A stretch of 64,000 nt of DNA, from positions 9,392 to 73,391 of IMG/VR virus record IMGVR_UViG_3300041586_000098; one strand, written 5' to 3'. The notes under the pieces are model-generated. The model searched no databases. It was not told where the DNA came from and saw only the letters and a program-made list of their open reading frames with translations. A program made the position numbers and the translations under genes. Shown here piece by piece: positions 3,699 to 64,000 of the stretch (positions within the stretch are counted from its first letter, which is position 1; the number at the start of each line of letters is the position of its first letter). The DNA is from a virus.

Positions 3699-4895
3699 AT
3701 GACAATAGATGAATTAATACTAAAACCGGAAGAAGATCTGACACAGAGTGAGATCAAAATATTGGTTGAACATTATTCAATGATGTCAGCTAAATATACA
3801 GCATACGAACAGGCAGTTAAGGTAATGCTTAACTCAATATATGGTGCATTTGGAAATAAATGGTTTCACTTTTTTAACATAGACATTGCTGAATCTATTA
3901 CACTACAGGGTCAATCCGCCATTTTATACTCAGAAAAAATTCTTAATAAGTATTTTCATGAATTTTGGCTTAAAGATAAGCAAGTGCATTCTCATTTTAA
4001 TATTTCTATTAAGAATAAACTAGTAAGACCATCTGTTGTTTATATTGACACCGATTCGGCTTATGTTCAATTCGAAGAAATGTATGAATCTATTGAGTGG
4101 AATGATGATTATATGTCAATAGATAAGTTTATTATGGAATTATATAACTTTAGACTTAAGGATTACATTTTTAAGTGTATGGAAAAGTATTCAGAAGCAA
4201 CAAATACCGAAAATTTTCTTGTATTTGAATTAGAAACAATAGCATATTCAGGAATATGGTTAGCTAAGAAAAAATATCTTCAAAATATAGCATGGGAAGA
4301 CAGGCTTGACATTAATGATAGATATCCTTCACTTAAAAAAATAAAAACAATAGGATTCGATACTATTCAAAGTTCAACACCTGCAATTGCAAGGAAGCAT
4401 TTAACTGAAGCTCTTAAATTGATTCTTTCAGAAAAGCCAACTGCATCTTTACTAAAAAGATTAGTAGATTATTTAAAACAATGTAAAAAAGAATTTCAGC
4501 TTGCAGATATAGATGAAATTTGCTTCAACAAAAGAACAAATAACATCGATAAGTATATTCTAGATGATACGACTGAATTCCAGTATGGCTTAAAATGCCC
4601 ATCTAATGTCAAGGCGGCAGGTTTTTATAATTTTCTAATGAATAACAATCCAAAATATAAAAATAAATATAAGATGATTGGCAATGGAGAAAAGCTTAGA
4701 CTATACCATTGTAAACACTCTATTTGTGAAATATTTGCATATCAACCAAGTGCACATCCGTATGAAATTGCACCACCAGTGGATTATGAACTACAGTTTG
4801 AAAAAAGTGTAATTGATCCATTAAACAGAGTTCTTTCAGCGGTAGGATTACATACACTAAACAGAAATTTAATTTATTCAACATCATTATTTTAA
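3699..4895 (+). CDS. Family B DNA polymerase, C-terminal subunit (split polymerase)
   Basis: KVMLNSIYG (motif B), YIDTDS (motif C), KKKY; no motif A or exonuclease domain. Confidence 0.9.
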   Translation: MTIDELILKPEEDLTQSEIKILVEHYSMMSAKYTAYEQAVKVMLNSIYGAFGNKWFHFFNIDIAESITLQGQSAILYSEKILNKYFHEFWLKDKQVHSHFNISIKNKLVRPSVVYIDTDSAYVQFEEMYESIEWNDDYMSIDKFIMELYNFRLKDYIFKCMEKYSEATNTENFLVFELETIAYSGIWLAKKKYLQNIAWEDRLDINDRYPSLKKIKTIGFDTIQSSTPAIARKHLTEALKLILSEKPTASLLKRLVDYLKQCKKEFQLADIDEICFNKRTNNIDKYILDDTTEFQYGLKCPSNVKAAGFYNFLMNNNPKYKNKYKMIGNGEKLRLYHCKHSICEIFAYQPSAHPYEIAPPVDYELQFEKSVIDPLNRVLSAVGLHTLNRNLIYSTSLF

Positions 4896-12295: not shown

Positions 12296-14215
12296 ATGAT
12301 TAAATGTACATTAGAGGATTTATACGAATTTAATAAAATAAATGGAGTAGTAAATTCAGGTAATTTTAAGGTAAAAACTAGATGTGGATTAAAACAAATA
12401 AATGCAATTGCGATTACAGCAACTGACAGCATACAGCACCATATCATTACAAATAACAGGTCTGTCATATCATCACCCGATCATTTATTTTTCAGCAATG
12501 GATGGAAAAAGGCTTCTTTATTTAAGGTAGGAGATTCCATTGAAACAATAGACGGTATTGAATATGTTAAGCACAACATTATATTAGAAGACACTGATGA
12601 TTTACTAGATATTGAAGTTGCAGAAATCAAAGAGTTTTATGCTAATGGATTTGTATCTCATAATAGTACTATTGCTAATGCAATAGTTTTTGCTTTATAT
12701 GGTAAAGTAGAAGGAGTAAAATTATCTGATCTTCCAAACCGAATTAATAAGGAGTTATGGGTAAGAATTAAACTTCAATGTAAATCAACTAACGTTGTAA
12801 TTGAAAGAGGACTAGCACCTGGTATTTTTAAAGTTGAATTAAATGGAATTGAATTCGATAAGGCAGGTAAAAAATCAGTTCAAGATTATCTTGAAGAAGA
12901 AATATTTGGGATTCCATATCATGTATTTAAAAACATCATTATTCTTTCAGTTAATGATTTTAAATCATTTTTAACAATGAATAATAATGATAAAAGACAG
13001 ATCATTGACAAGATGTTTGGTTTTTCTATTCTTAATGAAATGCAAAATGCAATTAGAGAAGAAAGAAAATTACTCAAAGGCGATATAGATTCATTTAGTA
13101 GGGAATTAATTCAAATAAGTAATAACATACTTTCGGTAAAGGAAAAGCTTGAAATTTTAATGGTAGAAAGTCAAGCAAAAGACAAACAAAAAATACAAGA
13201 ACTTAAAGATACTTTAGTAAAATACAATGATAATAAAAATAAACTAGAAGATGCACAATTAAAAATATCTGAAAGCATAGGAACGTTGTCAATGGATCTA
13301 AGGGTTAAACAATCAGATGAATCTGATTTTAAATACAAGCTTGCCGAAATTAAGAAAAAGCTTGTATTATATGAAAATAATACATGTCCAACATGTGCAA
13401 GTGCATTAAGTAATGAATTCCATATTGACAGAAAAAAAGAACTTATTAATGAATTAGAATTAATTCCAAGCAAATTAACAGATGCTACTGCTTTGGTATG
13501 TAATGTATCACGTGATATTAATGAACTAAGACAAAAGGATAGAGCAGTACAGGACAAGGTTTCTACTTTAAATACTAATATTCGAATGTTTAAAAATGAA
13601 CTTATTAAAATAAGAGATTCAATTAAAGGAACAGCCGACTTTTCACATTTAGAACAGATTATAAGCGACTTTGAAAAACAAGAATTAGAAAAAGGTTCAT
13701 TTAGAGATATTAAATCAATTGACTTTGGATTCTTAGAACTGATAGAAGATGTATTAGGTGAAGATGGAGTTAAAAATCTAGCAATTAAAACTATTTTACC
13801 GGGATTAAATGCAAACATATCATCGATGGTGCAAATTATGCACTTACATTTTCACATAAGATTTGATGAAAAGTTTAATTGTATAATCAACCATTTAGGA
13901 GAAGAAATTAATCCATTAACATTATCAACTGGTGAACGTAAAAAGGCAGATTTTATCATAATTATAGCAATTATTAAGATTTTAAAATTAAGATTTCCAC
14001 AATTAAATTTACTATTCTTAGATGAATTATTGAGTTCAGTAGATGCAGATGGAATACATAACATATTAAAGATCTTAAGTCAAGTAATTAAAGAAAGTAA
14101 AATAAATACATTTGTAATTAATCACACCCCATTGCCTAGAGAAATTTTTGATGCAGAGGTTCAAATTTACAGAGAAAATGGTTTTTCAAAGTTTGATGTT
14201 ATTAAAATTGATTAA
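12296..14215 (+). CDS. gp46: Long C-intein (123 aa) plus gp46/SbcC C-fragment
   Basis: SSPDHLF block B; FYANGFVSHN|STIANA; CPTC zinc hook, LSTGE signature, LFLDE Walker B. Confidence 0.92.
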   Translation: MIKCTLEDLYEFNKINGVVNSGNFKVKTRCGLKQINAIAITATDSIQHHIITNNRSVISSPDHLFFSNGWKKASLFKVGDSIETIDGIEYVKHNIILEDTDDLLDIEVAEIKEFYANGFVSHNSTIANAIVFALYGKVEGVKLSDLPNRINKELWVRIKLQCKSTNVVIERGLAPGIFKVELNGIEFDKAGKKSVQDYLEEEIFGIPYHVFKNIIILSVNDFKSFLTMNNNDKRQIIDKMFGFSILNEMQNAIREERKLLKGDIDSFSRELIQISNNILSVKEKLEILMVESQAKDKQKIQELKDTLVKYNDNKNKLEDAQLKISESIGTLSMDLRVKQSDESDFKYKLAEIKKKLVLYENNTCPTCASALSNEFHIDRKKELINELELIPSKLTDATALVCNVSRDINELRQKDRAVQDKVSTLNTNIRMFKNELIKIRDSIKGTADFSHLEQIISDFEKQELEKGSFRDIKSIDFGFLELIEDVLGEDGVKNLAIKTILPGLNANISSMVQIMHLHFHIRFDEKFNCIINHLGEEINPLTLSTGERKKADFIIIIAIIKILKLRFPQLNLLFLDELLSSVDADGIHNILKILSQVIKESKINTFVINHTPLPREIFDAEVQIYRENGFSKFDVIKID

Positions 14216-50727: not shown

Positions 50728-51864
50728 ATGGAAAATTTAAATTCAGTATGTTACGTTGGTTTAGTTACGGAAATTAAGGAAATTAAAGGGGCTGATTTTC
50801 TTGAATTAGCATTAATCGGAGGTTGGAATTGTGTAACTAAGAAAAACGAATTTCAAACAGGTGATAAGATAGTGGTTGCAACAACAGACGCGGTCATTCC
50901 TGCAACACTTTCAGATTTAATGAGTGTTACTACATATCTTAGAAAAGGTAACCGCGTGCGCACTGTAAAGTTACGAGGAGTATACTCTGAGTGTCTTCTT
51001 ATTCCATTTAAGTATTTAGCACCGCAATCCTTAGAAAAAAATTGTCCAGTTGGAACTGATATGATGCCAATATTAGGTGTTACTAAATATGAGCCTCCTG
51101 TTAGACAAATTCAACTTGCAGGTGGTAGAAAAACTAAATATCAAGACAATCAAAACTTTCATGTTTATTACAAATTTCCAAATTTAAAAAATGTGGATGG
51201 AATGTTCAATGAGACAGACGAAGTTCAAATTACAAGAAAAATTCACGGAACAAACGCGAGATTTGGTATTGTTAGAAAAAACAAATTATCTATATGGGAT
51301 AGGATTAAAAAATATTTAAAACTTCCGGGACATAGATTTGTTGAATATGAGTATGTATATGGTTCGCATAATGTTGAAAAAGGAAGTGACTCACAGGGTT
51401 TCTATTCTACTGATGTTTGGTCTAATGCTGCAAATAAATATAAAATTAAAGAAAGTCTTTGGGAATATGCAAAAAACATGTATGTGTCTATTGGTGAAGG
51501 GATCGTAATCTATGGTGAAATTTATGGAGCAGGCATTCAAAAAAACTATGAATATGGTTTAACAGAAACTAGATTTGTTGCATTCGATATTAAACGTAAT
51601 GGAGAATATTTATCACCATTAACCACTGAATTTTTAATAAATAAAGAATTTGGTATTCCACATGTTGAAGTATTATATACTGGTCTTTGGTCTCAATCAG
51701 TACAAGATAAATTTACATTTAAAAACTTTATTAAAGAGACAAAGGTTCCGCATGAAGGTATTGTAATTAAGTATCATACAGGTGAAAGAAATAAAATAGC
51801 AAAGGTTATTAATCCAGACTACTTATGCTATAGTGAAGCAAATGATGTAGAAGATTCACATTAA
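50728..51864 (+). CDS. ATP-dependent RNA ligase (DRB0094/Rnl family)
   Basis: N-terminal OB-like domain; TRKIHGTN, YGEIYG, FDI, HEGIVIK, AKVI. Confidence 0.88.
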   Translation: MENLNSVCYVGLVTEIKEIKGADFLELALIGGWNCVTKKNEFQTGDKIVVATTDAVIPATLSDLMSVTTYLRKGNRVRTVKLRGVYSECLLIPFKYLAPQSLEKNCPVGTDMMPILGVTKYEPPVRQIQLAGGRKTKYQDNQNFHVYYKFPNLKNVDGMFNETDEVQITRKIHGTNARFGIVRKNKLSIWDRIKKYLKLPGHRFVEYEYVYGSHNVEKGSDSQGFYSTDVWSNAANKYKIKESLWEYAKNMYVSIGEGIVIYGEIYGAGIQKNYEYGLTETRFVAFDIKRNGEYLSPLTTEFLINKEFGIPHVEVLYTGLWSQSVQDKFTFKNFIKETKVPHEGIVIKYHTGERNKIAKVINPDYLCYSEANDVEDSH

Positions 51865-53925: not shown

Positions 53926-54303
53926 ATGAAAAGGATAAAATTATTTGAAGAGTTTTTAAACGAATCAGAGGAAACATATAATGATTATCCAGCTGCCGCA
54001 TCTCAAAATGCAAAAATGGCAATTGATTGGCGCGATGAATATGGTAGAGATGAAATAAAGGCTGGTACTGCAGTTGGATGGCAACGAGCAAATCAATTAG
54101 CAAATAAAGAAAAGATATCTGCTGATGTTGTATCTCGAATGGCATCTTTTAATAGACATAGAAAGAACTCAACAATTGCACCTGAATTTAAAAGTACGCC
54201 CTGGCTCGATAAAGGATATGTTAGTTGGCTGTTATGGGGAGGAGATGAAGGAGTTGATTGGGCTATTGAAAAGGGAAAGGAAATTAAAAAAGAAGAAGAA
54301 TGA
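53926..54303 (+). CDS. Conserved phage protein with capsid-targeting-like N-terminus
   Basis: Likely start MKRIKLFEEFLNE at 53926; GT.VG..RA.QL, RM.SF.RH, LWGG..G..WA. Confidence 0.7.
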   Translation: MKRIKLFEEFLNESEETYNDYPAAASQNAKMAIDWRDEYGRDEIKAGTAVGWQRANQLANKEKISADVVSRMASFNRHRKNSTIAPEFKSTPWLDKGYVSWLLWGGDEGVDWAIEKGKEIKKEEE

Positions 54304-54842
54304 AAAAAATAAAATTATTTGAGGAATTTATGAACGAGGCTAAAAAACAAACGTATGGTGCTAATTGTGCAATGTTATATTTTGACTTTCCAGAAATGGC
54401 GCAAATTCATAAAGAAATAATATCATCTGATCTATTTGAATCAGAAGAAGGAGGAGGGCATGGTTTAGAAACTGAATCACATTGTACACTACTATATGGA
54501 CTTAATGCCGATGTATCATTAAATGCAGTTAAGGTAAAATTACAAGGGTTGGGCTTTGATAAATGTCTCGCACATAACATTTCATTATTTGAAAACAAAG
54601 AGTTTGATGTGCTTAAATTTGATATTAAGGGAGATAATTTGCACGCCGCCAATAAATCTTTATGCGAACTTCCGTATAAAACAGACTATCCTGATTATCA
54701 TCCCCATATGACTGTTGCATATTTAAAATCAGGTATGGGGAAAAAATACGTGGAAATGTTTAATACACATGAACATGTCTTAATTCCATCACATATTGTT
54801 TATTCAATGACAGATGGTAGTAAAAATACCATTGATATTTAA
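54300..54842 (+). CDS. 2H phosphoesterase (gp57B/Acb1-like) with capsid-targeting-like N-terminus
   Basis: HCTLLYG and YHPHMTVAY HxT motifs; starts MKKIKLFEEFMNE. Confidence 0.8.
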   Translation: MKKIKLFEEFMNEAKKQTYGANCAMLYFDFPEMAQIHKEIISSDLFESEEGGGHGLETESHCTLLYGLNADVSLNAVKVKLQGLGFDKCLAHNISLFENKEFDVLKFDIKGDNLHAANKSLCELPYKTDYPDYHPHMTVAYLKSGMGKKYVEMFNTHEHVLIPSHIVYSMTDGSKNTIDI

Positions 54843-56997: not shown

Positions 56998-57067
56998 GTT
57001 TCGTTTAATCTTGGAGATTGGATAGCTTGCAACCCTATCAGAAGTGGTTCGATTCCACTACGAAACT
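56998..57067 (+). tRNA. tRNA-Cys(GCA), atypical D and anticodon arms
   Basis: GTTTCGT/ACGAAAC acceptor, U73, loop TTGCAAC. Confidence 0.7.
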
Positions 57068-57313
57068 CTAATAACTTTAACAAAACATTAACACTAAAAG
57101 TTTTTATAAGTCAAATAAAATGATTATATTTACTTATAATTAAAAACAATAGAATATGTGTGAAAAGGAAAGATTATTAAGAGAATTGTTTAAGACCGTG
57201 GAAAGGAAAACAAACGGTTGGAAATGCAAAATGGAAACTTTAACAAAAAATTAACACTTAAAGTTTTCAAGATTAAAAGATTTTGATTATATTTACTTAT
57301 AACTAAAAACAAA

Positions 57314-57341
57314 CGTTAATTGACATATTGATAATACTAAA
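57314..57341 (+). promoter_or_regulatory. Conserved leader with boxA-like element (also 58339-58366 and 60401-60428)
   Basis: Identical CGTTAATTGACATATTGATAATACTAAA between promoter and first tRNA, three times. Confidence 0.55.
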
Positions 57342-57342
57342 C

Positions 57343-57415
57343 GCGAATATCGTATAATGGCTTATTACTCTAGACTTCCAATCTGGAAATGACAGTTCGA
57401 TCCTGTCTATTCGCT
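57343..57415 (+). tRNA. tRNA-Gly(TCC)
   Basis: Cloverleaf, loop CTTCCAA, U73. Confidence 0.9.
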
Positions 57416-57461
57416 CCGGGAACCTTTTTAACATTTCCATATTTTTATAGATATATACTAT

Positions 57462-58145
57462 ATGGAAAAGTTAATTAAGGTTAAACAAGCCTCAAGGCGA
57501 AAATATCATTACATCTATAAAACTACATGTATCATTACTGAAAGGTTTTATATTGGAATGCACTCAACTGATAACCTAGAAGATGGTTATGTTGGTTCAG
57601 GTAAAAGATTATGGCATTCAATAAACAAACATGGCAAAGAAAATCATGTCACTGCGATAATTGAATATTTAAAAGATAGAGATTCTTTAAAAGCTAGAGA
57701 AAAAGAAATGGTTAATGAAGATCTATTAAAGGATCCTCAATGCATGAATTTAGCGTTAGGCGGAGAAGGTGGTGCGGGTTGCATGACTAAAGAACAATTA
57801 TCTAAAGGAGGTAAAAAAATGAATGAACTAAATTGGACTGATCTTGAATTTATAAAACGGAATGCAGAAAGAAATAAAATAAGGTTAAAAGAATTATGGA
57901 AAGATCCAGAATATAGAAACAAAATGTTAGTTTTAATAAATTGGACTGGTAGAAAACATAAAGAAGATTCTATAAATAAAATGAAAGTGTCTAAGATCGA
58001 TCATGGAAAAGGATCTTTAAACTCACAATATAATACATGTTGGATTTATAAAATTACAGATGAAAAATCTATTAAAATAAAAAATAATGAAATTCAATCA
58101 TATTTAGATAATGGTTGGATTGAAGGTAGGAAGATGAAATGGTAA
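57462..58145 (+). CDS. Seg-like GIY-YIG homing endonuclease
   Basis: YIYKTT....FYIGMHST..LEDGY.GSG; G.KH..E NUMOD3-like motif. Confidence 0.88.
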   Translation: MEKLIKVKQASRRKYHYIYKTTCIITERFYIGMHSTDNLEDGYVGSGKRLWHSINKHGKENHVTAIIEYLKDRDSLKAREKEMVNEDLLKDPQCMNLALGGEGGAGCMTKEQLSKGGKKMNELNWTDLEFIKRNAERNKIRLKELWKDPEYRNKMLVLINWTGRKHKEDSINKMKVSKIDHGKGSLNSQYNTCWIYKITDEKSIKIKNNEIQSYLDNGWIEGRKMKW

Positions 58146-58190
58146 AACATTAAATAGCAATTGACTCCTTTTATTAGAGAAAGCTTACAA

Positions 58191-58262
58191 TATCTTATAG
58201 TGTAACGGTTAGCACGAATCACTTTGAATGATTCAGTTTAGGTTCGAATCCTAATAAGATAA
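58191..58262 (+). tRNA. tRNA-Gln(TTG)
   Basis: Cloverleaf, loop CTTTGAA. Confidence 0.9.
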
Positions 58263-58366
58263 CTTTAACAAAACTTTAACACTTAAAGTTTTCTAGATTA
58301 AAATATTTTGATTATATTTACTTATAATTAAAAACAAACGTTAATTGACATATTGATAATACTAAA

Positions 58367-58442
58367 CGAGAGGTATAGGAGTCAGGTTTATCTAGCTGCA
58401 CTTGGACTGCAGATCACGTGGGTTCAAATCCCACTCTCTCGA
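58367..58442 (+). tRNA. tRNA-Pro(TGG)
   Basis: Cloverleaf, C1-G72, loop CTTGGAC. Confidence 0.9.
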
Positions 58443-58573
58443 CTAAATCTTTAAAGATTACAATACTGCAATGATTGCCGGCTACATGCATTGATCCTTA
58501 ACCCATATATTCGTTTGGGGTTCTTTTGAATTGGATAAACCGGACAGTTTTCCTAGGTGGTGCTAGGATATTT

Positions 58574-58656
58574 GCTCTTGTGGCGGAACTGGTAGACGCA
58601 CTGGTCTTAGAAACCAACGCTGTAATGGCATCTCGGTTCGACTCCGAGTAAGAGTA
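58574..58656 (+). tRNA. tRNA-Leu(TAG)
   Basis: Long variable arm, loop CTTAGAA, A73. Confidence 0.9.
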
Positions 58657-58688
58657 CTATAATGACTATTAGGAAAGACTAATAATTT

Positions 58689-58762
58689 GCTCTCTACGCA
58701 TAAATGGTGGTGCACTGGCTTTGTAACCCGGAATAGATTCAGTTCGATCCTGAAAGAGAGCT
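58689..58762 (+). tRNA. tRNA-Thr(TGT)
   Basis: GCTCTCT/AGAGAGC acceptor, loop TTTGTAA, short variable region. Confidence 0.8.
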
Positions 58763-58763
58763 C

Positions 58764-58853
58764 TAATTTAAATTAGTAATTAGCTTAAGAGATTAAAGCG
58801 TAATAGTAGATTAAGATATGGATTCAAAAAACCATATTACATAATTTAAATTA
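58764..58853 (+). pseudogene. tRNA-like element with shortened anticodon arm
   Basis: GCTT..AAGC D arm, TAAT-AGTAG-ATTA stub, degenerate T arm, AT-rich extended acceptor. Confidence 0.45.
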
Positions 58854-58856
58854 ATT

Positions 58857-58927
58857 GGCCCGGTCGTCTAAAAGCAGGACATTGTACTTTCAATTCAAAA
58901 ACCGGAGAGCGTTACTCCGTCGGGCTA
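58857..58927 (+). tRNA. tRNA-Glu(TTC), non-canonical T loop AGCGTTA
   Basis: Cloverleaf, loop CTTTCAA. Confidence 0.8.
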
Positions 58928-58947
58928 CTAAAAATAAGATTAAATAA

Positions 58948-59020
58948 GGGGTTGTAGCTAAAATGGATTAGCACTTCGTTTGCAACGAAAAGTATGCGGG
59001 TTCGAGGCCCGTCAGCTCCA
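58948..59020 (+). tRNA. tRNA-Ala(TGC)
   Basis: G3.U70, loop TTTGCAA. Confidence 0.9.
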
Positions 59021-59111
59021 CACTAGTTAAGCAATTGGTCATAAACAGCAATTGTGGATATATATGTTGTTAAGGTCCGCAAAACCCTCTAGCCAACTAC
59101 TGTTTATATTT

Positions 59112-59182
59112 GGTCCATTAGTACAAAGGCAGTATACCTGGTTGTCGCCCAGAAGAAAACGGATCGTTACCGTTATGGACCG
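59112..59182 (+). tRNA. tRNA-Asp(GTC), T loop ATCGTTA
   Basis: GGTCCAT/ATGGACC acceptor, G73, loop TTGTCGC. Confidence 0.85.
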
Positions 59183-59266
59183 CTAAATATTTTCTATTAT
59201 TGAAAATTAGTTTAAGAGTAAGTTTAAGAGTAATTAACTTAAACCTGAGAATTTCGAAGTTCTCGA

Positions 59267-59339
59267 TTGATTGTAGTGTAATGGTGCACGGGTCCGTTAT
59301 TGGAAACCAGGAGTAGGGTTCAAATCCCTTCAAATCAGC
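59267..59339 (+). pseudogene. tRNA-like RNA without a canonical anticodon loop
   Basis: Canonical D arm (GTGT-AATGGT-GCAC) and T loop TTCAAAT; irregular anticodon arm. Confidence 0.55.
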
Positions 59340-59345
59340 AAATAT

Positions 59346-59407
59346 TGCGGGGTAGTGTAATGGTAGCATGATGGGCTCATAACCCAAAGGAGTGGTTCGA
59401 ATCCGCC
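59346..59407 (+). pseudogene. Initiator tRNA-fMet(CAT) truncated at its 3' acceptor strand
   Basis: TGCGGGG start; GGG/CCC anticodon stem; expected CCCCGCA replaced by the endonuclease leader. Confidence 0.65.
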
Positions 59408-59447
59408 GACCATAACTTTTCTGCATATTTTATAGGATATATACTAT

Positions 59448-60101
59448 ATGCAAAAGACAAAAGGAATTAAAAGAGCTTCGGTTCGTAAATATCATTACAT
59501 TTATAAAACAACATGTATCATTACAAATATGTTTTATATTGGAATGCATTCAACTGACAACCTAGAAGATGGTTATGCTGGTTCAGGTACACGTCTATGG
59601 CATTCTATAAATAAACATGGCAAAGAAAACCATGTCACAAAGATTGTTGAGTTCTTAATAGATAGAAATTCTTTAAAGACTAGAGAAAAGGAGTTGGTTA
59701 ATGAAGATATGCTGAATGACAAAATGTGCATGAATATTCAATTAGGTGGAGGCGGAGGCTTTATATCTGAAGAAATTCAAAGGAATCGATCAATTGCTGG
59801 TGGAAATGCATTTAAAGAAAAATTCACTAATGATGAAGAATTTAAACAACGTTGGAGAAATGCAGTTTTCGATAGCGGAGCATGGTCCGGAGAAACATGG
59901 TTAGGTAGAAAACATAATGAAGAGACAAAGAAAAAGATTGGAGCATCTAATTCAATTAAACAATCCGGATCTTTAAACTCACAGTTCGGTAAATGCTGGA
60001 TTTATAACATTGAATTAAAACAAAATATTAGTATTAAAATGTCATTATTAGAACCATATTTAATAGAAGGTTGGATTAAAGGCAGAAAGATGAAATTTTA
60101 A
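59448..60101 (+). CDS. Seg-like GIY-YIG homing endonuclease (paralogue of 57462)
   Basis: Near-identical N-terminal catalytic domain. Confidence 0.88.
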   Translation: MQKTKGIKRASVRKYHYIYKTTCIITNMFYIGMHSTDNLEDGYAGSGTRLWHSINKHGKENHVTKIVEFLIDRNSLKTREKELVNEDMLNDKMCMNIQLGGGGGFISEEIQRNRSIAGGNAFKEKFTNDEEFKQRWRNAVFDSGAWSGETWLGRKHNEETKKKIGASNSIKQSGSLNSQFGKCWIYNIELKQNISIKMSLLEPYLIEGWIKGRKMKF

Positions 60102-60108
60102 CATAAAT

Positions 60109-60183
60109 GGCGGGCGGACCGGTCGGTATCGGAGGTAGTCTCATAAGCTACATTAAATGTAGTTCGACTCTACAGCGTCGCAA
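60109..60183 (+). tRNA. tRNA(CAT), Met-like, imperfect acceptor stem
   Basis: GTAGT-CTCATAA-GCTAC; TGTAG-TTCGACT-CTACA. Confidence 0.6.
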
Positions 60184-60246
60184 CGATGTAGTTTATATGA
60201 TTCTCTTTTCATTGAGTTCTCCTCAGAAAAACTCTAAAAAAGAAAT

Positions 60247-60318
60247 GGTCTCGTGGCGCAGTGGTAGCGCAGTTCGCTCATAACGAAAAGGTCGCAGGTC
60301 CAAATCCTGCCGGGACCA
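60247..60318 (+). tRNA. tRNA(CAT), probably Ile2
   Basis: GGTCTCG/CGGGACC acceptor, A73, loop CTCATAA; identity inferred. Confidence 0.75.
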
Positions 60319-60429
60319 CTAAAACTTTAACAAAAAATTAACACTTAAAGTTTTTTATATTAAAAGATTTTGATTATATTTACTTATAATTAAAAACAAA
60401 CGTTAATTGACATATTGATAATACTAAAT

Positions 60430-60513
60430 GGAAGGTATCCGGTTGGATGAGGAGCTTGTTTTGAAAACAAGTAACAGGTTGTACTGTTGTGGGTTCGAAT
60501 CCCACACCTTCTT
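60430..60513 (+). tRNA. tRNA-Ser(TGA)
   Basis: Long variable arm, loop TTTGAAA. Confidence 0.85.
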
Positions 60514-60602
60514 CGAATAAAATCTTAATTATAAGTATCTCCCAAAACATTCTAAGTTATATTTGAAGGAGAGAGAAGAACTTAGAGTACTTATGATTAT
60601 AC

Positions 60603-60673
60603 GCCCTTGATGCTTTAAAGTGAAGCACCTAGCTTTTAACTAGGGGAAGTAGGAGCATTACCTACCGGGGGTA
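60603..60673 (+). tRNA. tRNA-Lys(TTT), T loop AGCATTA
   Basis: CCTAG-CTTTTAA-CTAGG. Confidence 0.85.
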
Positions 60674-60732
60674 CAATGATAAGACTGTTACTAATTCATA
60701 GAGTTACATAATACGATTATAGAATTAGATTT

Positions 60733-60803
60733 GCCCTGTTGGCGTAATAGAAGCGTAATTGTTTTACATGCAATTGGCGGTGGAGCGTAACCATCACAGG
60801 GTA
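60733..60803 (+). tRNA. tRNA-Val(TAC), T loop AGCGTAA
   Basis: ATTGT-TTTACAT-GCAAT. Confidence 0.85.
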
Positions 60804-60900
60804 CAAAAATGTAAATAAACAAACAAATGACTGCAATCCTTACTTTGTTTATGCACATACTATGGAAGTTAAATCTTGCAGGAAATAGCTACTAATAGTT

Positions 60901-60973
60901 TTTACTAAAGGTGTTATGGCCAACATACCGGTGAGTCAGGCCGGAGAATAGGGTTCGAATCCCGTTAGTAATC
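60901..60973 (+). pseudogene. Atypical tRNA-like RNA (GTC at loop centre, A33)
   Basis: TTACTA/TAGTAA acceptor; CCGGT-GAGTCAG-GCCGG; TTCGAAT T loop. Confidence 0.5.
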
Positions 60974-60996
60974 AAATTTAAGTTTTCTTAAAAACT

Positions 60997-61077
60997 GGGA
61001 ACAGAAAGTCGTTTGGATACGGCAGCGGGATTGTAAACCCCGTCCGAAAGGGAGTGGTTCGAATCCACATGGTCCCA
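60997..61077 (+). tRNA. tRNA-Tyr(GTA)
   Basis: Loop TTGTAAA, variable hairpin CC-GAAA-GG, A73. Confidence 0.75.
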
Positions 61078-61153
61078 CTAAACCTTAACATGTTAAGGTT
61101 GATTAAATCATAATGTCTACATATTCTAATTGAAACTATGATATTATGCAATT

Positions 61154-61226
61154 GCGGATTAAGCTAATCTGGTGAAAGCGCATGGTTGAAGCCCATGAGA
61201 GACAGGATCGTAACCTGTAATCCGCA
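61154..61226 (+). tRNA. tRNA-Phe(GAA), T loop ATCGTAA
   Basis: GCGGATT/AATCCGC acceptor; CATGG-TTGAAGC-CCATG. Confidence 0.85.
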
Positions 61227-61279
61227 CAACGTTAAAGGTAATGCTGAACGTCAAACGACAATCCGGAAAGACGGATAAT

Positions 61280-61351
61280 GGATCGGTAGCTCAGGGGAAG
61301 AGCGGATGTTTGTTAGGCATCGGGTCGAGATTTCGAAATTCTCCCGGTCCG
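61280..61351 (+). tRNA. tRNA-Asn(GTT)
   Basis: GATGT-TTGTTAG-GCATC, G73. Confidence 0.85.
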
Positions 61352-61369
61352 CTAAAATAATCTTTATAT

Positions 61370-62092
61370 ATGAAAGAATGTGAAAATTGTAAATTAAAAC
61401 ATGAAGGCATATATGGCTCAGGTAGATTTTGTTCAAATACATGTGCCAAGGGATTCAGTACAAAGTTTAAAAGACTAGAAATTAATGAAAAAGTTAAAAT
61501 TAAACTAACAACAACAGAGACTATAATAAAGGAATGCGAAAATTTAAAATGCAAAAAAAAATTCAAATATAACTCTACATATAAAAACAGAAAATACTGT
61601 TCAATTAAATGTGGTGCATTTGTTAATAGTACTAACGAAATAGTTAAAGATAAATTATCAATAGCTAGAATTAATGCAATAAAGCGTGGAATAACAAATG
61701 GTTCAGGCATAAAATCAACATATTTGTTTAAAGGAAATTTCATAAATTGCGACTCTAATATAGAAAGAGCCTGTATAAATTATTTTGAAAATTTAGGTGC
61801 ATCATTAATCGAAAGATGTGACATTACAATACAGTATGTACATAATGGTACTACGCGTAGATTTTTACCTGATTTTAAGGTCTTATTAAATAACAAAACA
61901 TATATTGTTGAAGCCAAGGGATATGTAACTTCAACAATATTAAATGAAAAATGGAGACATTATAATGAGACTTCAATATTAAAAAAAAATATATTGCAGC
62001 AATATTGTAAAGAAAATAATTATGATTCCTTTTGGTTTACAAAAGATCTTCATATGAAATATTATAGAAATTTATCTAGGTTCGATTCCTAG
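61370..62092 (+). CDS. PD-(D/E)XK (TnsA-like) putative homing endonuclease with Cys-rich N-terminus
   Basis: CENC..FCS..C twice; RRFLPDF......IVEAKG. Confidence 0.8.
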   Translation: MKECENCKLKHEGIYGSGRFCSNTCAKGFSTKFKRLEINEKVKIKLTTTETIIKECENLKCKKKFKYNSTYKNRKYCSIKCGAFVNSTNEIVKDKLSIARINAIKRGITNGSGIKSTYLFKGNFINCDSNIERACINYFENLGASLIERCDITIQYVHNGTTRRFLPDFKVLLNNKTYIVEAKGYVTSTILNEKWRHYNETSILKKNILQQYCKENNYDSFWFTKDLHMKYYRNLSRFDS

Positions 62093-62100
62093 TGGAGCAG
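62076..62100 (+). pseudogene. Orphan tRNA 3' half overlapping the endonuclease stop codon
   Basis: CTAGG-TTCGATT-CCTAG followed by TGGAGCA-G. Confidence 0.7.
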
Positions 62101-62197
62101 CAAATCGCTAAAATAAATAAAAAGAGACCGTGGTGTTATGACAGGACGACCGTGAATAAAATATTCGGTGTAAGGCTCTCACCTTTAGCGATCAATT

Positions 62198-62336
62198 GCC
62201 CGAATAGTCAATAAGAACGTTCTTAGTGGTAAGTGGGCTAACGATGATTTAATATTACTTCCCGATGATCTAGATAAAGCATGGAAAGTGATTAAATATG
62301 TAGTTAGTAAGGTTGGTTCAATTCCATCTTTGGGCG
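62198..62336 (+). ncRNA. tRNA-like RNA with greatly extended anticodon arm
   Basis: GCCCGAA/TTTGGGC acceptor, G73, TTCAATT T loop, ~70-nt arm closed by GCTAAC/GTTAGT. Confidence 0.55.
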
Positions 62337-62341
62337 CAAAT

Positions 62342-62413
62342 TCACCTGTAGTAGAATGGTTAGCACACATCTCTGATAAGGATGAAATGGAAGTTCAATT
62401 CTTCCCAGGTGAA
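62342..62413 (+). tRNA. tRNA-Ile(GAT)
   Basis: CATCT-CTGATAA-GGATG. Confidence 0.88.
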
Positions 62414-62419
62414 CAATAT

Positions 62420-62490
62420 TCACATGTAGTAGAACGGTTAGCACGCATCCCTGTGCGATGAAATGGAAGTTCAAATCTTCCCAATGTGAA
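62420..62490 (+). pseudogene. Tandem duplicate of tRNA-Ile with eroded anticodon arm
   Basis: D and T arms near-identical to 62342; anticodon arm CATC-CCTGTGC-GATG. Confidence 0.7.
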
Positions 62491-62497
62491 TAATAAT

Positions 62498-62580
62498 AGA
62501 GAGTAAACTAGAATGGTTCTAGCACTGTTTGCTAAACAGTTGGTCCGAATTCGGATGGGGATCGTAACCTCTTCTCTCTA
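62498..62580 (+). tRNA. tRNA-Ser(GCT), T loop ATCGTAA
   Basis: ACTGT-TTGCTAA-ACAGT, long variable arm. Confidence 0.8.
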
Positions 62581-62714
62581 CTAAGTATCTGTAAGCGTTA
62601 GAGAATTGGTGCACCAACATACCATGTAGAATGGCCATTTTATTATAGTAACGTTATCTTTTAGTTAGTTAAGTTCAACTCTTAGCAGACAAATCTAATG
62701 CAAGGTACTTAAAT

Positions 62715-62783
62715 TGCGATTTGATCTAGGATCGAGAATATCTCATAAGTATTTTCAGACAGGAGCGTAACCTGTAATCGCAA
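62715..62783 (+). tRNA. tRNA(CAT) with short D arm, T loop AGCGTAA
   Basis: TGCGATT/AATCGCA acceptor; AATAT-CTCATAA-GTATT. Confidence 0.6.
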
Positions 62784-62795
62784 CAAAATTAATAT

Positions 62796-62867
62796 GGTGT
62801 TTGAAGCTTTTTAGTGAAGCGCAAGACTGTGAATCTTGAGAAGACGGGGCGGTACCGTCCTAACACC
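62796..62867 (+). tRNA. tRNA-His(GTG), T loop GGCGGTA
   Basis: G-1/C73; CAAGA-CTGTGAA-TCTTG. Confidence 0.85.
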
Positions 62868-62966
62868 CGACATCTCCAAAATGGAGAATGACTTGGTAAT
62901 GAATTAATTTCAAACAAACTCAATACCTTAAGTTGAGCAGATAATCTACGTGATTATCTTTTAAAT

Positions 62967-63048
62967 TCCCCTTTGATGGAACAGTAGACATGTCAGACTT
63001 AAAATCTGGTGCCTTTATGGTGTGCGAGTGCAATTCTCGCAAGGGGAA
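62967..63048 (+). tRNA. tRNA-Leu(TAA), T loop TGCAATT
   Basis: Long variable arm, loop CTTAAAA. Confidence 0.85.
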
Positions 63049-63054
63049 CTATAT

Positions 63055-63127
63055 AATCCTATAGCTTAATTGGAAGAGCCCTGTGCTACGAACACAGAGG
63101 ATATAGGTTCGAGTCCTATTAGGATTT
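63055..63127 (+). tRNA. tRNA-Arg(ACG)
   Basis: CTGTG-CTACGAA-CACAG. Confidence 0.9.
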
Positions 63128-63129
63128 CA

Positions 63130-63310
63130 AATATTAATTGTTGAAGCTTATAAACGTTTTGTAAGACTCGAGTTCGACTCTCGACATGTCCACTAAATTA
63201 AAAGTATTAAAAAGGGCATGAATGGTGTTGATTACGATATAGAATATAGGACTAGATTAATATCAACGCAAACGACAAATTTGCCTTAGCAGCGTAGTTG
63301 CTGTTAGGTA
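63130..63310 (+). ncRNA. ssrA: Circularly permuted (two-piece) tmRNA, tag ANDKFALAA
   Basis: T arm and CATGTCC-A (63185-63192) lie upstream of GGGCATG (63214-63220); G3.U70; tag ORF 63268-63297. Confidence 0.88.
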
Positions 63311-63364
63311 CTAACTTCTAAGAAGTTATTTACTTACGTCTCCTGAAACGAAATTCAGGAATTT

Positions 63365-63436
63365 GCCTCTATAGTTTAATTGGAAAAACGGATCTCTTCT
63401 AAAGATCAAACATGGGTTCGACTCCCGTTAGAGGTT
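63365..63436 (+). tRNA. tRNA-Arg(TCT)
   Basis: GATCT-CTTCTAA-AGATC. Confidence 0.9.
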
Positions 63437-63507
63437 CTAATATTAAAGAAACAGAGCAACCTTTAGACAACCTATATGGTAGAAATTAGCTTAGACAGTT
63501 TCTTTAA

Positions 63508-63580
63508 ATACTTCTCACAGGCAAGGTGCCGGTATGGTCTCCAAAACTACTACGGCTAGGTTCGATTCCTAGGGGTTGTG
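63508..63580 (+). tRNA. tRNA-Trp(CCA), weak acceptor stem
   Basis: Loop CTCCAAA; CTAGG-TTCGATT-CCTAG; G73. Confidence 0.65.
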
Positions 63581-63713
63581 CAACTTTAACAAAGATTTAA
63601 CACTCCGTATTTTTTAATACGGATTTTTTTGTTTAGATTTACATATAATAATTAATCATATATTAGATGATTTTAAGACACTTTAATCTAATATGTATAA
63701 TCATACAACATCG

Positions 63714-64000
63714 ATGAAAAAGTACACCAAAACACTAGTGCTTGACTCTAGTTACATGCCAAGAAGTATTATCAGTAGCCTACGAGCATTTGTCGTTGTT
63801 ATTAAAGGAAACGCTGCAATTGTTGAAGAACATGATTGCAATTTCAAGTTAGTTAATCCAAATACTATTATAAAGAAACCATCGGTTATTAGGGTTCAAA
63901 AATATGTAAACACTCGACATAATAAAGTTCCATTAACAAGGGAGAATGTATTTAAGAGAGATGGAAACATGTGTGTATATTGTGGAGATGATAATATCAA
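63714..64000 (+). CDS. HNH endonuclease (McrA-like), runs off the window end
   Basis: LVLDSSY.P...PSVIR...LTRENVFKRD...CVYCG. Confidence 0.85.
   Translation, partial: MKKYTKTLVLDSSYMPRSIISSLRAFVVVIKGNAAIVEEHDCNFKLVNPNTIIKKPSVIRVQKYVNTRHNKVPLTRENVFKRDGNMCVYCGDDNI

Follow-up and report, generated by a model that had tools for sequence, protein, structure and literature searches.

A 64,000-nt stretch of viral DNA (hereafter the window) carries a circularly permuted gene for tmRNA, which releases ribosomes that have stalled, at positions 63131-63364 of the (+) strand, between two tRNA-Arg genes. The observation is confirmed as real and beyond chance. An earlier note on this DNA had proposed an unusually small, permuted tmRNA gene in a phage, and this is borne out by a covariance-model match (Rfam RF04321), by covariation in the stems and by the layout of the gene. 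Judging from sequence, we put at roughly 0.78 the probability that the gene is functional, encodes a two-piece tmRNA and belongs to a compact class carried by phages. The source phage is uncultured and comes from a salt lake. The parts of the gene and its neighbors are as follows.

63055-63128 (+): tRNA-Arg(ACG), upstream neighbor (ARAGORN; Rfam tRNA 62.2 bits)
63131-63138 (+): distal helix-2 strand ATATTAAT, 5′ end of the acceptor piece; partner 63256-63263 (sequence)
63139-63142 (+): TGTT, candidate helix B with GACA 63274-63277 (RNAalifold)
63147-63152 (+): CTTATA, putative middle helix-2 strand; partner 63245-63250 (uncertain)
63159-63164 (+): helix 2a 3′ strand TTGTAA (Rfam alignment; compensatory change in variant L034)
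63165-63184 (+): GAC junction and T arm (Rfam alignment)
63168-63184 (+): T arm TCGAG/TTCGACT/CTCGA (sequence)
63185-63192 (+): acceptor 3′ strand CATGTCC (63185-63191) and discriminator A73 (63192) (sequence, Rfam alignment)
63193-63213 (+): A/U-rich intervening segment, 21 nt, CTAAATTAAAAGTATTAAAAA (sequence)
63214-63220 (+): acceptor 5′ strand GGGCATG; RNase P is expected to cut at G1 (sequence, Rfam alignment)
63221-63231 (+): D-loop analogue AATGGTGTTGA, UUGA type (Rfam alignment, class comparison)
63232-63237 (+): helix 2a 5′ strand TTACGA (Rfam alignment, L034 variant)
63256-63263 (+): distal helix-2 5′ strand ATTAATAT (sequence, class pair counts)
63268-63297 (+): tag frame GCA AAC GAC AAA TTT GCC TTA GCA GCG TAG, ANDKFALAA-stop (sequence, Rfam alignment)
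63282-63310 (+): helix-5-like hairpin, 12 bp with one bulge, stop codon in the loop (ViennaRNA fold)
63306-63360 (+): 3′ tail of the coding piece as far as the following tRNA (ViennaRNA fold)
63365-63437 (+): tRNA-Arg(TCT), downstream neighbor (ARAGORN, Rfam)
63604-63633 (+): intrinsic-terminator-like hairpin and T run, closing the tRNA/tmRNA array (sequence)

When the whole 64-kb window was compared with all 4227 Rfam families, RF04321 (tmRNA_permuted) gave one match of this kind, at 63146-63297, scoring 50.2 bits where the cut-off is 47 (E = 7e-7), a small margin of 3 bits. A permuted-tmRNA covariance model, one of the checks proposed beforehand, thus recognizes the gene; ARAGORN, another, called 18 genes in the window, none of them a tmRNA, and made no tmRNA call for the copies at loci L002, L006 and L034. 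The models for the alpha (RF01849), beta (RF01850) and cyanobacterial (RF01851) lineages, with cut-offs of 50, 84 and 70 bits, are not reached by the window. Its best lineage match in the clan is to beta_tmRNA, with 32.5 bits over the tRNA-like part only, and the other lineage models score lower.

The layout reads as had been claimed. The 3′ acceptor strand and T arm come before the 21-nt A/T-rich spacer, which comes before the 5′ acceptor strand, and the two strands together form a 7-bp stem. This stem contains G3.U70 and is followed by A73, so that the alanine identity elements are present. The gene sequence contains GAGTTCGA, not GGTTCGA. Four sequence variants only of this gene are available, one of them from a run (X12) whose DNA contigs were used solely as a source of variants. 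Among these, acceptor pair 4-69 covaries: the window has C-G, L034 has G-C and the X12 contig has A-U. At 63234/63162 in helix 2a, the A-U pair of the window is replaced by G-C in L034. The spacer differs between variants in both length and sequence. Beyond the tag hairpin, the predicted fold of the 3′ tail has two more hairpins, 63306-63336 (overlapping helix 5) and 63341-63360; L034, L002 and X12 differ there at loop or bulge positions, or in ways that preserve the pairing.

Besides the window, three IMG/VR contigs only carry the gene; a search of 50,697 GenBank phage records found no close homologue (all matches E ≥ 0.8), a metagenome scan with a subfamily pattern gave no match, a look-up of RNA runs containing the sequence listed none, and LR756500.1, the nearest capsid relative, has no RF04321 match above 14.8 bits. 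CCA is not encoded, because A73 is followed by C and then TAAAT. All 18 window tRNAs share this ending of N73, C and then a non-CCA sequence. Both G001, a near-identical contig, and G002 carry a gene for a PolyA_pol-family nucleotidyltransferase. As to the surroundings, an RNA ligase gene lies near the phage tRNA operon, and a candidate CCA-adding enzyme is encoded by close relatives. The suggestion that loci L228 and L126 are the two ends of a circular contig was dropped, as both adjoin inside contig G003.

Three pairings had been proposed for helix 2, and they fared differently. TTACGA/TTGTAA is upheld by the Rfam alignment and by the A-U to G-C change in L034. The distal strands are upheld by pair counts across 22 class members (the class is defined below), in which the homologous 4-bp core is paired in 89.5% of cells and four of four pairs have changed on both sides. 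Helix 2 extends to within 4-10 nt of the resume codon. The middle pairing, TATAGG/CTTATA, can form in the window and in L034, where one-sided changes keep the pairs, and has no support across class relatives. The single-sequence minimum-energy fold contains other local hairpins and does not reproduce helix 2. Two-strand and precursor folds reproduce the acceptor stem, T arm and tag hairpin, and put local A/U-rich hairpins in place of helix 2. We did not adopt these hairpins because the variants contradict two of them: L034 makes one alternative pair U-U and another A-C.

In the usual picture of tmRNA, pseudoknot 1 is the single indispensable pseudoknot. None is recognizable here, as the earlier note had said: the distance from helix 2a to GCA is only 30 nt, and the one local pairing checked, TAG 63240-42 with CTA 63252-54, is broken in L002 and L034 by T>G at 63253. 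Pseudoknot 1 does not form part of the RF04321 model as that model is presented in PMC11915505, and in E. coli, by the account in PMC3968760, it is needed or a hairpin must replace it. RNAalifold proposes a 4-bp helix B (63139-63142 with 63274-63277) that would cross the distal helix to give a pseudoknot-like fold, with pair counts of 93% and 92%. TGTT 63139-63142 could alternatively form a local hairpin with AACG 63153-63156, and we put helix B forward as a hypothesis only.

The tag was also read as claimed: the frame is ANDKFALAA, with stop codon TAG at 63295-63297 in the loop of a predicted 12-bp hairpin (63282-63310). The proposed resume codon, GCA at 63268, does lie 54 nt after G1. Canonical tmRNAs, following the E. 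coli rule, have A at position −4 before the resume codon, as does the class, and the base at −4 to GCA in the window is C. In the class alignment, the resume position falls on GAC. Translation may resume at GCA 63268, or at GAC 63274 to give DKFALAA. The peptide is the same in the four variants, with one synonymous change (63294 G>T, GCG to GCT), and seven of its ten codons differ from the SAR11 tag gene, all synonymously. That only synonymous changes are seen, both among variants and against SAR11, argues that the tag is under selection.

Three features define the compact class, for which we made a covariance model (R1): a UUGA-type D-loop analogue, a resume codon about 54-63 nt after G1, and a distal helix 2 to which the acceptor piece contributes its 5′ end. 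The window gene has all three. The UUGA loop occurs in 23 of 121 viral permuted segments (five of the 23 are copies or variants of the window gene). Eight of the 11 UUGA segments called by ARAGORN have 56-63 nt between G1 and the resume codon, and UCGA-type segments have a median of 86 nt (n = 78). Of the tmRNA models, class members match the general RF04321 alone (47-71 bits) and none of those for the lineages. The window scores 127 bits on R1 by construction, because it is a seed member; non-seed members score 76-144 bits, including the cultured Maribacter phage Panino (87.4) and the crAss-like phage cr115_1 (86.2). Across 22 distinct members, 92.5% of cells are paired, compared with 72.4% in shuffled and 40-55% in slid controls. 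G3.U70 is kept in 22/22, the acceptor and T stems are 98% and 100% paired, and the resume context UAAAC/UAACU-G[G/A]C is conserved. The same architecture of UUGA loop, long helix 2, short spacing and conserved resume context recurs at 18 or more further loci in viruses or phages. On sequence criteria, the window gene adds another example to a group of phage mini-tmRNAs that has been little described, and is not a one-off. Our literature search found no phage two-piece tmRNA described as "mini" or as lacking pseudoknot 1; such genes may be listed in Buchholz et al. 2022 (Table S1, on phage two-piece tmRNAs) or in the 2025 paper on the tmRNA database (Supplementary Table S2).

Two-piece tmRNAs in phages are already known, both published and annotated in GenBank, and the premise that phage tmRNAs are one-piece does not hold. 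Buchholz et al. 2022 describe a two-piece ssrA in phage Melnitz, and report that among 133 unique phage tmRNAs ARAGORN called 53 two-piece forms (PMC9004378). GenBank/RefSeq records annotate permuted tmRNAs in Panino (PP540027.1, 27557-27889) and in the crAss-like phages cr114_1 (NC_055897.1) and cr115_1 (NC_055898.1). These three resemble the window gene in being phage-borne and permuted, with a UUGA-type loop, a resume codon close to G1 and a UAAC/UAAA-N-G[G/A]C-type resume context, and in matching the general RF04321 model only (51-64 bits); the Panino copy likewise lies between two tRNAs in a tRNA array. They differ in that ARAGORN calls them, in their tags, which begin with G and lack the FALAA end (GKVMNVSFAPTVRQFA; GN..Y..Y.RIAA types), and in their longer spacers (38 nt in Panino; a whole tRNA-His inside that of cr114_1).

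The two-piece ssrA of the OM43 phage Melnitz and the pelagimyophages (PMC9004378) has several features in common with the window gene: it is phage-encoded and circularly permuted, its carriers are aquatic T4-like myophages, and its tag has ALAA at the end. The Melnitz ssrA is nonetheless a full-size alpha-type gene (alpha_tmRNA 106.7 bits, RF04321 113.4 bits, 453 nt annotated), whereas the window gene is about half that size and fits no lineage model; the Melnitz gene encodes the tag ANDNYVPVDYALAA, has a glutamine riboswitch on its 3′ side and does not belong to a tRNA array. SAR11/Pelagibacterales tmRNA (RF01849) has the permuted order, G3.U70 and the identical tag ANDKFALAA, but its resume codon lies ~83 nt after G1, which leaves room for pseudoknot 1, unlike in the window gene, and its T loop is unusual. 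One-piece Bacteroidota tmRNA (RF00023) resembles the window gene at the 5′ end (GGGG.UG...GGUUUUGA) and at the 3′ end (...UCCAC without encoded CCA). It differs in being one-piece and 370-397 nt long, with 150-156 bits on RF00023, a resume codon at ~95-99 nt and tags such as GENNYALAA and GNTQYAMAA. Extreme reduction to little beyond the tRNA-like domain is found in the mitochondrial permuted tmRNA (RF02544), which is also permuted, and in the TLD-only RNA of mycobacteriophage DS6A (PMC11915505); these forms are without a tag frame, whereas the window gene keeps a conserved frame, stop codon and helix-5 hairpin.

The identical tag raises the question of a recent capture of an alphaproteobacterial (SAR11) host tmRNA, with the known alpha permutation followed by shrinkage. 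The GC content of the phage (~30%) is compatible with SAR11, whose own GC content fits that value. The exact ANDKFALAA-stop pattern occurs in 101 genome stretches, 98 with Pelagibacterales/SAR11-type names, and at 95 of the 101 ARAGORN calls a permuted tmRNA with the same tag. Alpha-type ssrA is also carried by Melnitz and pelagimyophages (PMC9004378). The RNA itself, however, is unlike that of SAR11, which scores 232.5 bits on alpha_tmRNA, where the window falls below even its 32.5-bit beta match, and which encodes CCA, differs in its T loop and has a loop of the UCGA type as well as the longer G1-to-resume distance. SAR11 is the most distant of four groups by identity in the tRNA-like domain (0.57-0.61), values that are biased because the Bacteroidota comparison set was chosen by a motif resembling the L034 variant, and that were used only for showing SAR11 to be the most distant. 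R1 finds neither SAR11 nor Melnitz at E 1e-6. The same tag sits on a one-piece tmRNA in a Bacillota MAG, and the tag match could be convergence, because AND-x-FALAA leaves one free residue only. Recent capture from SAR11 was thus largely rejected, and we regard it as quite improbable. That permutation and minimization occurred once, in this phage lineage alone, as the earlier note supposed, would suit the lack of a close homologue in the GenBank phage records and the restriction of the gene to three other IMG/VR contigs; it is very unlikely given the same architecture in the other viral and phage loci, Panino and the crAss-like phages among them, and aligned helices that covary across the class.

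It is also conceivable, though unlikely, that the RNA is a tRNA-like decoy that does no tagging and titrates host SmpB or alanyl-tRNA synthetase, blocking host trans-translation. Such activity has been reported for the DS6A TLD-only RNA (PMC4131195, PMC11915505). The missing pseudoknot 1 would fit a decoy, as would the candidate helix B, which may sequester the resume codon, and the finding of no smpB gene in four related contigs that are 25-67% complete. Against this, the tag frame, stop codon and helix-5 hairpin, none of which a decoy would require, are conserved with synonymous change only, and the context of the resume codon is conserved in the class. A decayed relic, or chance tRNA-like pairing among parts of neighboring tRNA genes, is the least probable reading, and hardly credible. 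The Rfam score near the cut-off, the negative ARAGORN result, a tRNA-like remnant nearby (about 63505-63583) and false pattern matches in tRNA arrays elsewhere speak for it; compensatory changes in the acceptor stem that links both halves, a tag frame intact in all variants, and the fit to the class model with its invariant G3.U70 speak against it.

A working member of the compact class is the reading we prefer, and the origin of that class may lie near Bacteroidota. In two Bacteroidales-order genomes the tmRNA starts GGGGCUG...GGUUUUGACAG and ends ...UCCAC without CCA. This 5′ motif was found in at least 120 stretches of genome; among the 80 listed, 76 bear what we take to be Bacteroidota names, and ARAGORN calls a one-piece tmRNA at 99 of 122 loci. 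The UUGA-type D-loop analogue is also found in Bacteroidota one-piece tmRNAs. This suggests that the tRNA-like half of the window gene resembles the one-piece tmRNA of Bacteroidota and not the alpha, beta or cyanobacterial two-piece lineages, and therefore that the class is probably a separate phage permutation. The independent permutation proposed for this gene thus fails for this phage alone, given the compact class in other viral contigs, but the class as a whole may have arisen among phages by a permutation apart from the alpha, beta and cyanobacterial ones. The tags of Bacteroidota (GENNYALAA and similar) are unlike the proteobacterial AND...ALAA-type tag of the window. A fuller version, which we consider possible but doubtful, would have a mini two-piece tmRNA lineage of the phages' own derive from a Bacteroidota-type one-piece tmRNA by a permutation distinct from the three known in bacteria. 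An intermolecular, pseudoknot-like fold would have taken the place of pseudoknot 1, with two pairings made by the acceptor piece at its 5′ end: one, distal helix 2, just upstream of the resume codon, and another directly with that codon (YGYU with G[G/A]C[G/A]). In addition, the present phage would combine a Bacteroidota-like chassis with a foreign degron of proteobacterial/SAR11 type.

We infer every step after transcription (processing, charging and tagging) from the sequence. The tmRNA would be transcribed within the long tRNA operon of the phage and excised by tRNA-processing enzymes, with 3′ trimming of tRNA-Arg(ACG) freeing the 5′ end of an acceptor piece of ~62-64 nt. The 3′ end of this piece (A73, then C) would be trimmed as in the phage tRNAs and CCA completed by a CCA-adding enzyme, the first base of the spacer possibly being retained as C74. 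An RNase P cut before G1 would discard the 21-nt spacer and release a coding piece of ~90-150 nt, whose latest possible 3′ end would be set by the RNase P cut at the 5′ end of tRNA-Arg(TCT). The two pieces, joined through the acceptor stem as well as a long helix 2 with interruptions, would be charged by host alanyl-tRNA synthetase via G3.U70 and A73 and brought by host SmpB and EF-Tu to ribosomes stalled on broken messages. Translation would resume on the short frame, add (AN)DKFALAA, a ClpXP-type ...ALAA degron, and end with release at UAG. A role in rescuing ribosomes stalled by tRNA or mRNA cleavage, as the earlier note had it, is plausible.

The gain from this single locus is modest: it is one more example, known here from sequence alone. 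Standard phage annotation undercounts such genes, as ARAGORN misses the one in the window, and a tmRNA within a tRNA operon is a further sign of large phages bringing their own kit for maintaining translation. If the class does derive from a Bacteroidota-type tmRNA, there have been more permutations than the three textbook cases, and also in viruses. The compact class would offer a small scaffold for structural work, and a natural, conserved class of ~160-220 nt without pseudoknot 1 would define the minimal RNA able to support trans-translation.

A genuine phage tmRNA gene, compact and circularly permuted, lies at 63131-63364 (+). RF04321, Rfam's merged permuted-tmRNA model from a 2025 publication (PMC11915505), matches 63146-63297 at 50.2 bits, passing its cut-off of 47 (E = 7e-7), as the sole such match in the window. 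ARAGORN, the other check that the earlier note had proposed alongside covariance models, makes no tmRNA call in the window, and the lineage tmRNA models all score the gene below their cut-offs (the best, beta_tmRNA, reaches 32.5 bits on the tRNA-like part). The T arm, acceptor strands, spacer, helix 2a and tag frame that had been read from the sequence each lie where they had been placed.

Elements of the window tmRNA gene
63159-63164 with 63232-63237: helix 2a, TTGTAA with TTACGA
63168-63184 (+): T arm
63185-63191 (+): acceptor 3' strand CATGTCC, with A73 at 63192
63193-63213 (+): A/U-rich spacer, 21 nt
63214-63220 (+): acceptor 5' strand GGGCATG, paired with the 3' strand to give G3.U70
63268-63297 (+): tag frame GCA...TAG, ANDKFALAA
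Within the gene: D-loop analogue AATGGTGTTGA

At the end of the tag, the predicted fold forms a 12-bp hairpin whose loop contains the stop codon, an arrangement like that of helix 5 in tmRNAs.

Three further viral contigs hold the gene in an unchanged tRNA context, one of them near-identical (L002/G001) and two (L034/G002 and G003) with a common diverged copy; a contig of sequencing run X12 supplies a fourth variant. At acceptor pair 4-69 the window has C-G, L034 has G-C and X12 has A-U; at helix 2a pair 63234/63162 the three have A-U, G-C and G.U, respectively. In the middle pairing proposed earlier (TATAGG/CTTATA) the pairs survive the variant changes, all of which are one-sided. The tag varies only by a synonymous GCG>GCT. 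Such a pattern, drawn here from four variants only, would be expected if the split acceptor stem is functional and the tag is translated.

Permutation and phage location are already known. The premise that phage tmRNAs are one-piece is outdated, given the two-piece ssrA that Buchholz et al. 2022 described in OM43 phage Melnitz and, in the same paper, a tally of 133 unique phage tmRNAs in which ARAGORN assigned 53 to the two-piece form, 50 of these aquatic (PMC9004378). The Melnitz gene is of the full-size alpha type and matches alpha_tmRNA at 106.7 bits; its annotation spans 453 nt, and a glutamine riboswitch follows it. Our own permuted-TLD pattern found at least 117 IMG/VR stretches. Among 121 segments cut from the matches listed, ARAGORN calls permuted tmRNAs in 89, and the D-loop analogue reads ...UCGA in 98 and ...UUGA in 23, five of the latter being copies or variants of the window gene. 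Within these listed matches the distance from G1 to the resume codon is 56-63 nt in 8 of the 11 ARAGORN-called UUGA segments, against a UCGA median of 86 nt (n = 78); the window's 54 nt (G1 to GCA) is the shortest among the segments compared. UUGA members match RF04321 only, at 47-71 bits, and reach no lineage model. Eight of them have one long interrupted helix in common as the best duplex between the strands; it pairs the 32-35 nt that precede the T arm with the coding strand and stops 3-14 nt before the resume codon.

R1, a covariance model of this UUGA class built from 15 members, recovers non-seed members at 76-144 bits, while typical alpha- and beta-type viral genes score at most 82 bits and the SAR11 and Melnitz tmRNAs are absent from its matches at E 1e-6. 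Non-seed members include the crAss-like phage cr115_1, whose tmRNA is annotated in RefSeq, and the cultured Maribacter phage Panino, whose annotated tmRNA is likewise flanked by two tRNAs; the accessible text of the Panino paper merely mentions a tmRNA gene (PMC11590407). Across 22 distinct members, in an alignment fitted to the model's helices and thus favouring them, 92.5% of paired cells can pair, versus 72.4% when shuffled and 40-55% with slid partners. G3.U70 is invariant in the 22, and the distal helix-2 core has 89.5% of cells paired, with two-sided changes at four of four pairs. The UUGA architecture, the non-seed members and these pair counts make the window gene a class member rather than a one-off; the phage-specific, independent permutation put forward earlier is not borne out, since other viral loci share its architecture.

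Two phage permuted tmRNA genes carry a complete tRNA gene between acceptor and coding pieces: L057, an IMG/VR contig (match 3594-3820, minus strand), and L229, crAss-like cr114_1 (locus 1469-1911), where it is a tRNA-His at 1570-1642. In these two genes the discarded spacer therefore accommodates a further gene. In gut-phage loci, permuted tmRNA genes have RAGATH-22 and RAGATH-9 RNAs (Rfam, 154-193 bits) no more than a few hundred bases away (L091, 793-958, minus strand; L229, 1046-1213, and L230, 1277-1456, plus strand).

No pseudoknot 1 was found in the window gene, in agreement with the first reading. PK1 is described as almost universal (PMC1168896); according to a review, E. coli depends on PK1 or on a hairpin in its place, and two-piece tmRNAs contain fewer pseudoknots (PMC3968760). 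On the class alignment RNAalifold proposes an extra 4-bp pairing, absent from the covariance model, between YGYU, which directly follows the distal-helix strand of the acceptor piece, and G[G/A]C[G/A] at the resume codon (TGTT 63139-63142 with GACA 63274-63277 in the window). It is paired in 92-93% of cells; a two-sided change occurs at one pair, mostly between two lineages, and in some members a local hairpin is an alternative. This pairing crosses the distal helix, so that in a tentative model the two would enclose the resume context in a pseudoknot-like fold.

The same alignment bears on the resume codon, previously taken as GCA. It sets the window's GAC (63274) at the position of the others' GGC, which follows UAAAC or UAACU; in the window CAAAC precedes GAC and UCAAC precedes GCA. 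In E. coli, an A is needed at -4 of the resume codon. Hence GAC may be the resume codon, which would give the tag DKFALAA, 60 nt from G1 with a class-like 10-nt linker. Resumption at GCA would instead give ANDKFALAA; the two codons share frame and C-terminal degron.

The gene sits between tRNA-Arg(ACG), ending at 63128, and tRNA-Arg(TCT), starting at 63365, in an array interspersed with homing-endonuclease genes.

Genes and signals around the array
50728-51864 (+): RNA ligase gene (RNA_ligase and PHA02142 OB fold), a few kb upstream of the array
54300-54842 (+): Acb1-like anti-CBASS phosphodiesterase gene, a few kb upstream of the array
56998-63437 (+): tRNA array, 18 tRNA genes (ARAGORN)
57462-58145, 59448-60101, 63693-63998 (+): two homing-endonuclease genes (phrog_314) and one HNH endonuclease gene, within and after the array
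63604-63633: terminator-like hairpin closing the tRNA/tmRNA array

None of the 18 tRNAs encodes CCA; all 18 show the discriminator and a C, then diverge, often to TAAA. The tmRNA acceptor piece ends likewise (N73-C, without CCA), and maturation of the gene probably relies on the operon's tRNA-processing machinery. The near-identical contig G001 has a gene for a PolyA_pol-family nucleotidyltransferase about 10 kb beyond the tmRNA gene on its downstream side, and G002 has one too; the product is a candidate CCA-adding enzyme of the phage. No SmpB gene was found in four related contigs (25-67% complete), so host SmpB, AlaRS and EF-Tu would act on the phage tmRNA. The RNA ligase and Acb1-like genes are in keeping with a phage that keeps its translation repaired or protected when the host attacks, though they are no proof regarding the tmRNA. 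Past the last tRNA and before the terminator, at 63505-63583 (+), is a tRNA-like remnant; its T arm is good (CTAGGTTCGATTCCTAGG), ARAGORN makes no call there, and Rfam gives only 17 bits (tRNA-Sec model). Elsewhere (1283-2269, 3699-4895 and 12296-14215, plus strand), the ribonucleotide reductase and family-B DNA polymerase ORFs span only parts of their Pfam domains and a 639-aa ORF has a weak intein-splicing match; taken together, this suggests split or intein-/intron-interrupted core genes.

The host could be SAR11/Pelagibacterales or Bacteroidota. Tag identity and GC content (~30% in the window) favour the former: the exact ANDKFALAA pattern occurs in 101 genome stretches, 98 with Pelagibacterales/SAR11-type names and 95 with a permuted tmRNA bearing that tag. 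However, SAR11 tmRNA scores 232.5 bits on the alpha model whereas the window gene reaches no lineage cut-off, and it differs in its ~83 nt to the resume codon, encoded CCA, T loop and UCGA loop; 7 of 10 tag codons differ, each synonymously, and by tRNA-like-core identity SAR11 is the most distant of four groups. Bacteroidota are favoured by the class relatives, the TLD signature, a CCA end that is not encoded and a capsid related to those of Lak-like phages. The window takes up the 3' 64 kb of an IMG/VR virus contig 73 kb long and encodes T4-like proteins (portal, prohead protease, gp23 capsid, terminase and sheath); its capsid is closest to that of the uncultured 462-kb phage LR756500.1 (51% identity), with Lak phages of Prevotella second (38%). 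In two Bacteroidales-order genomes the one-piece tmRNA begins GGGGCUG...GGUUUUGACAG and ends ...UCCAC without CCA, features matching those of the window gene. At least 120 genome stretches contain this 5' motif; of 80 listed, 76 bear names that we take to be Bacteroidota, and 99 of 122 motif loci hold a one-piece tmRNA with a G-initial tag. The window's DNA was found in salt-lake metagenomes, with at least half of sampled words in 12 runs, one possibly its source.

A UUGA-type permuted pattern yields only five ARAGORN permuted tmRNAs in 50 genome stretches; they come from scattered MAGs, archaeal bins among them, a distribution that suggests stray contigs of phages. Short contigs in MAGs of unrelated phyla, an archaeon included, likewise carry compact permuted tmRNA genes of phage type (L277, binned as Nitrosopelagicus; L274, Erysipelotrichaceae; L269, Clostridia; tags GEQVEMAMAA, GNSFVTDYTGIAA and GNNFTNNTQKVMYAAA), most likely phage contigs mis-binned. 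Signatures, compared within a set picked with a related motif, make it probable that the compact class derives from a Bacteroidota-type tmRNA by a separate permutation. Neither the class's architecture without pseudoknot 1 nor its Bacteroidota-like tRNA half was found in the main text of searchable papers. The locus contributes a proteobacterial-type tag upon a compact-class chassis with a Bacteroidota-like tRNA half.
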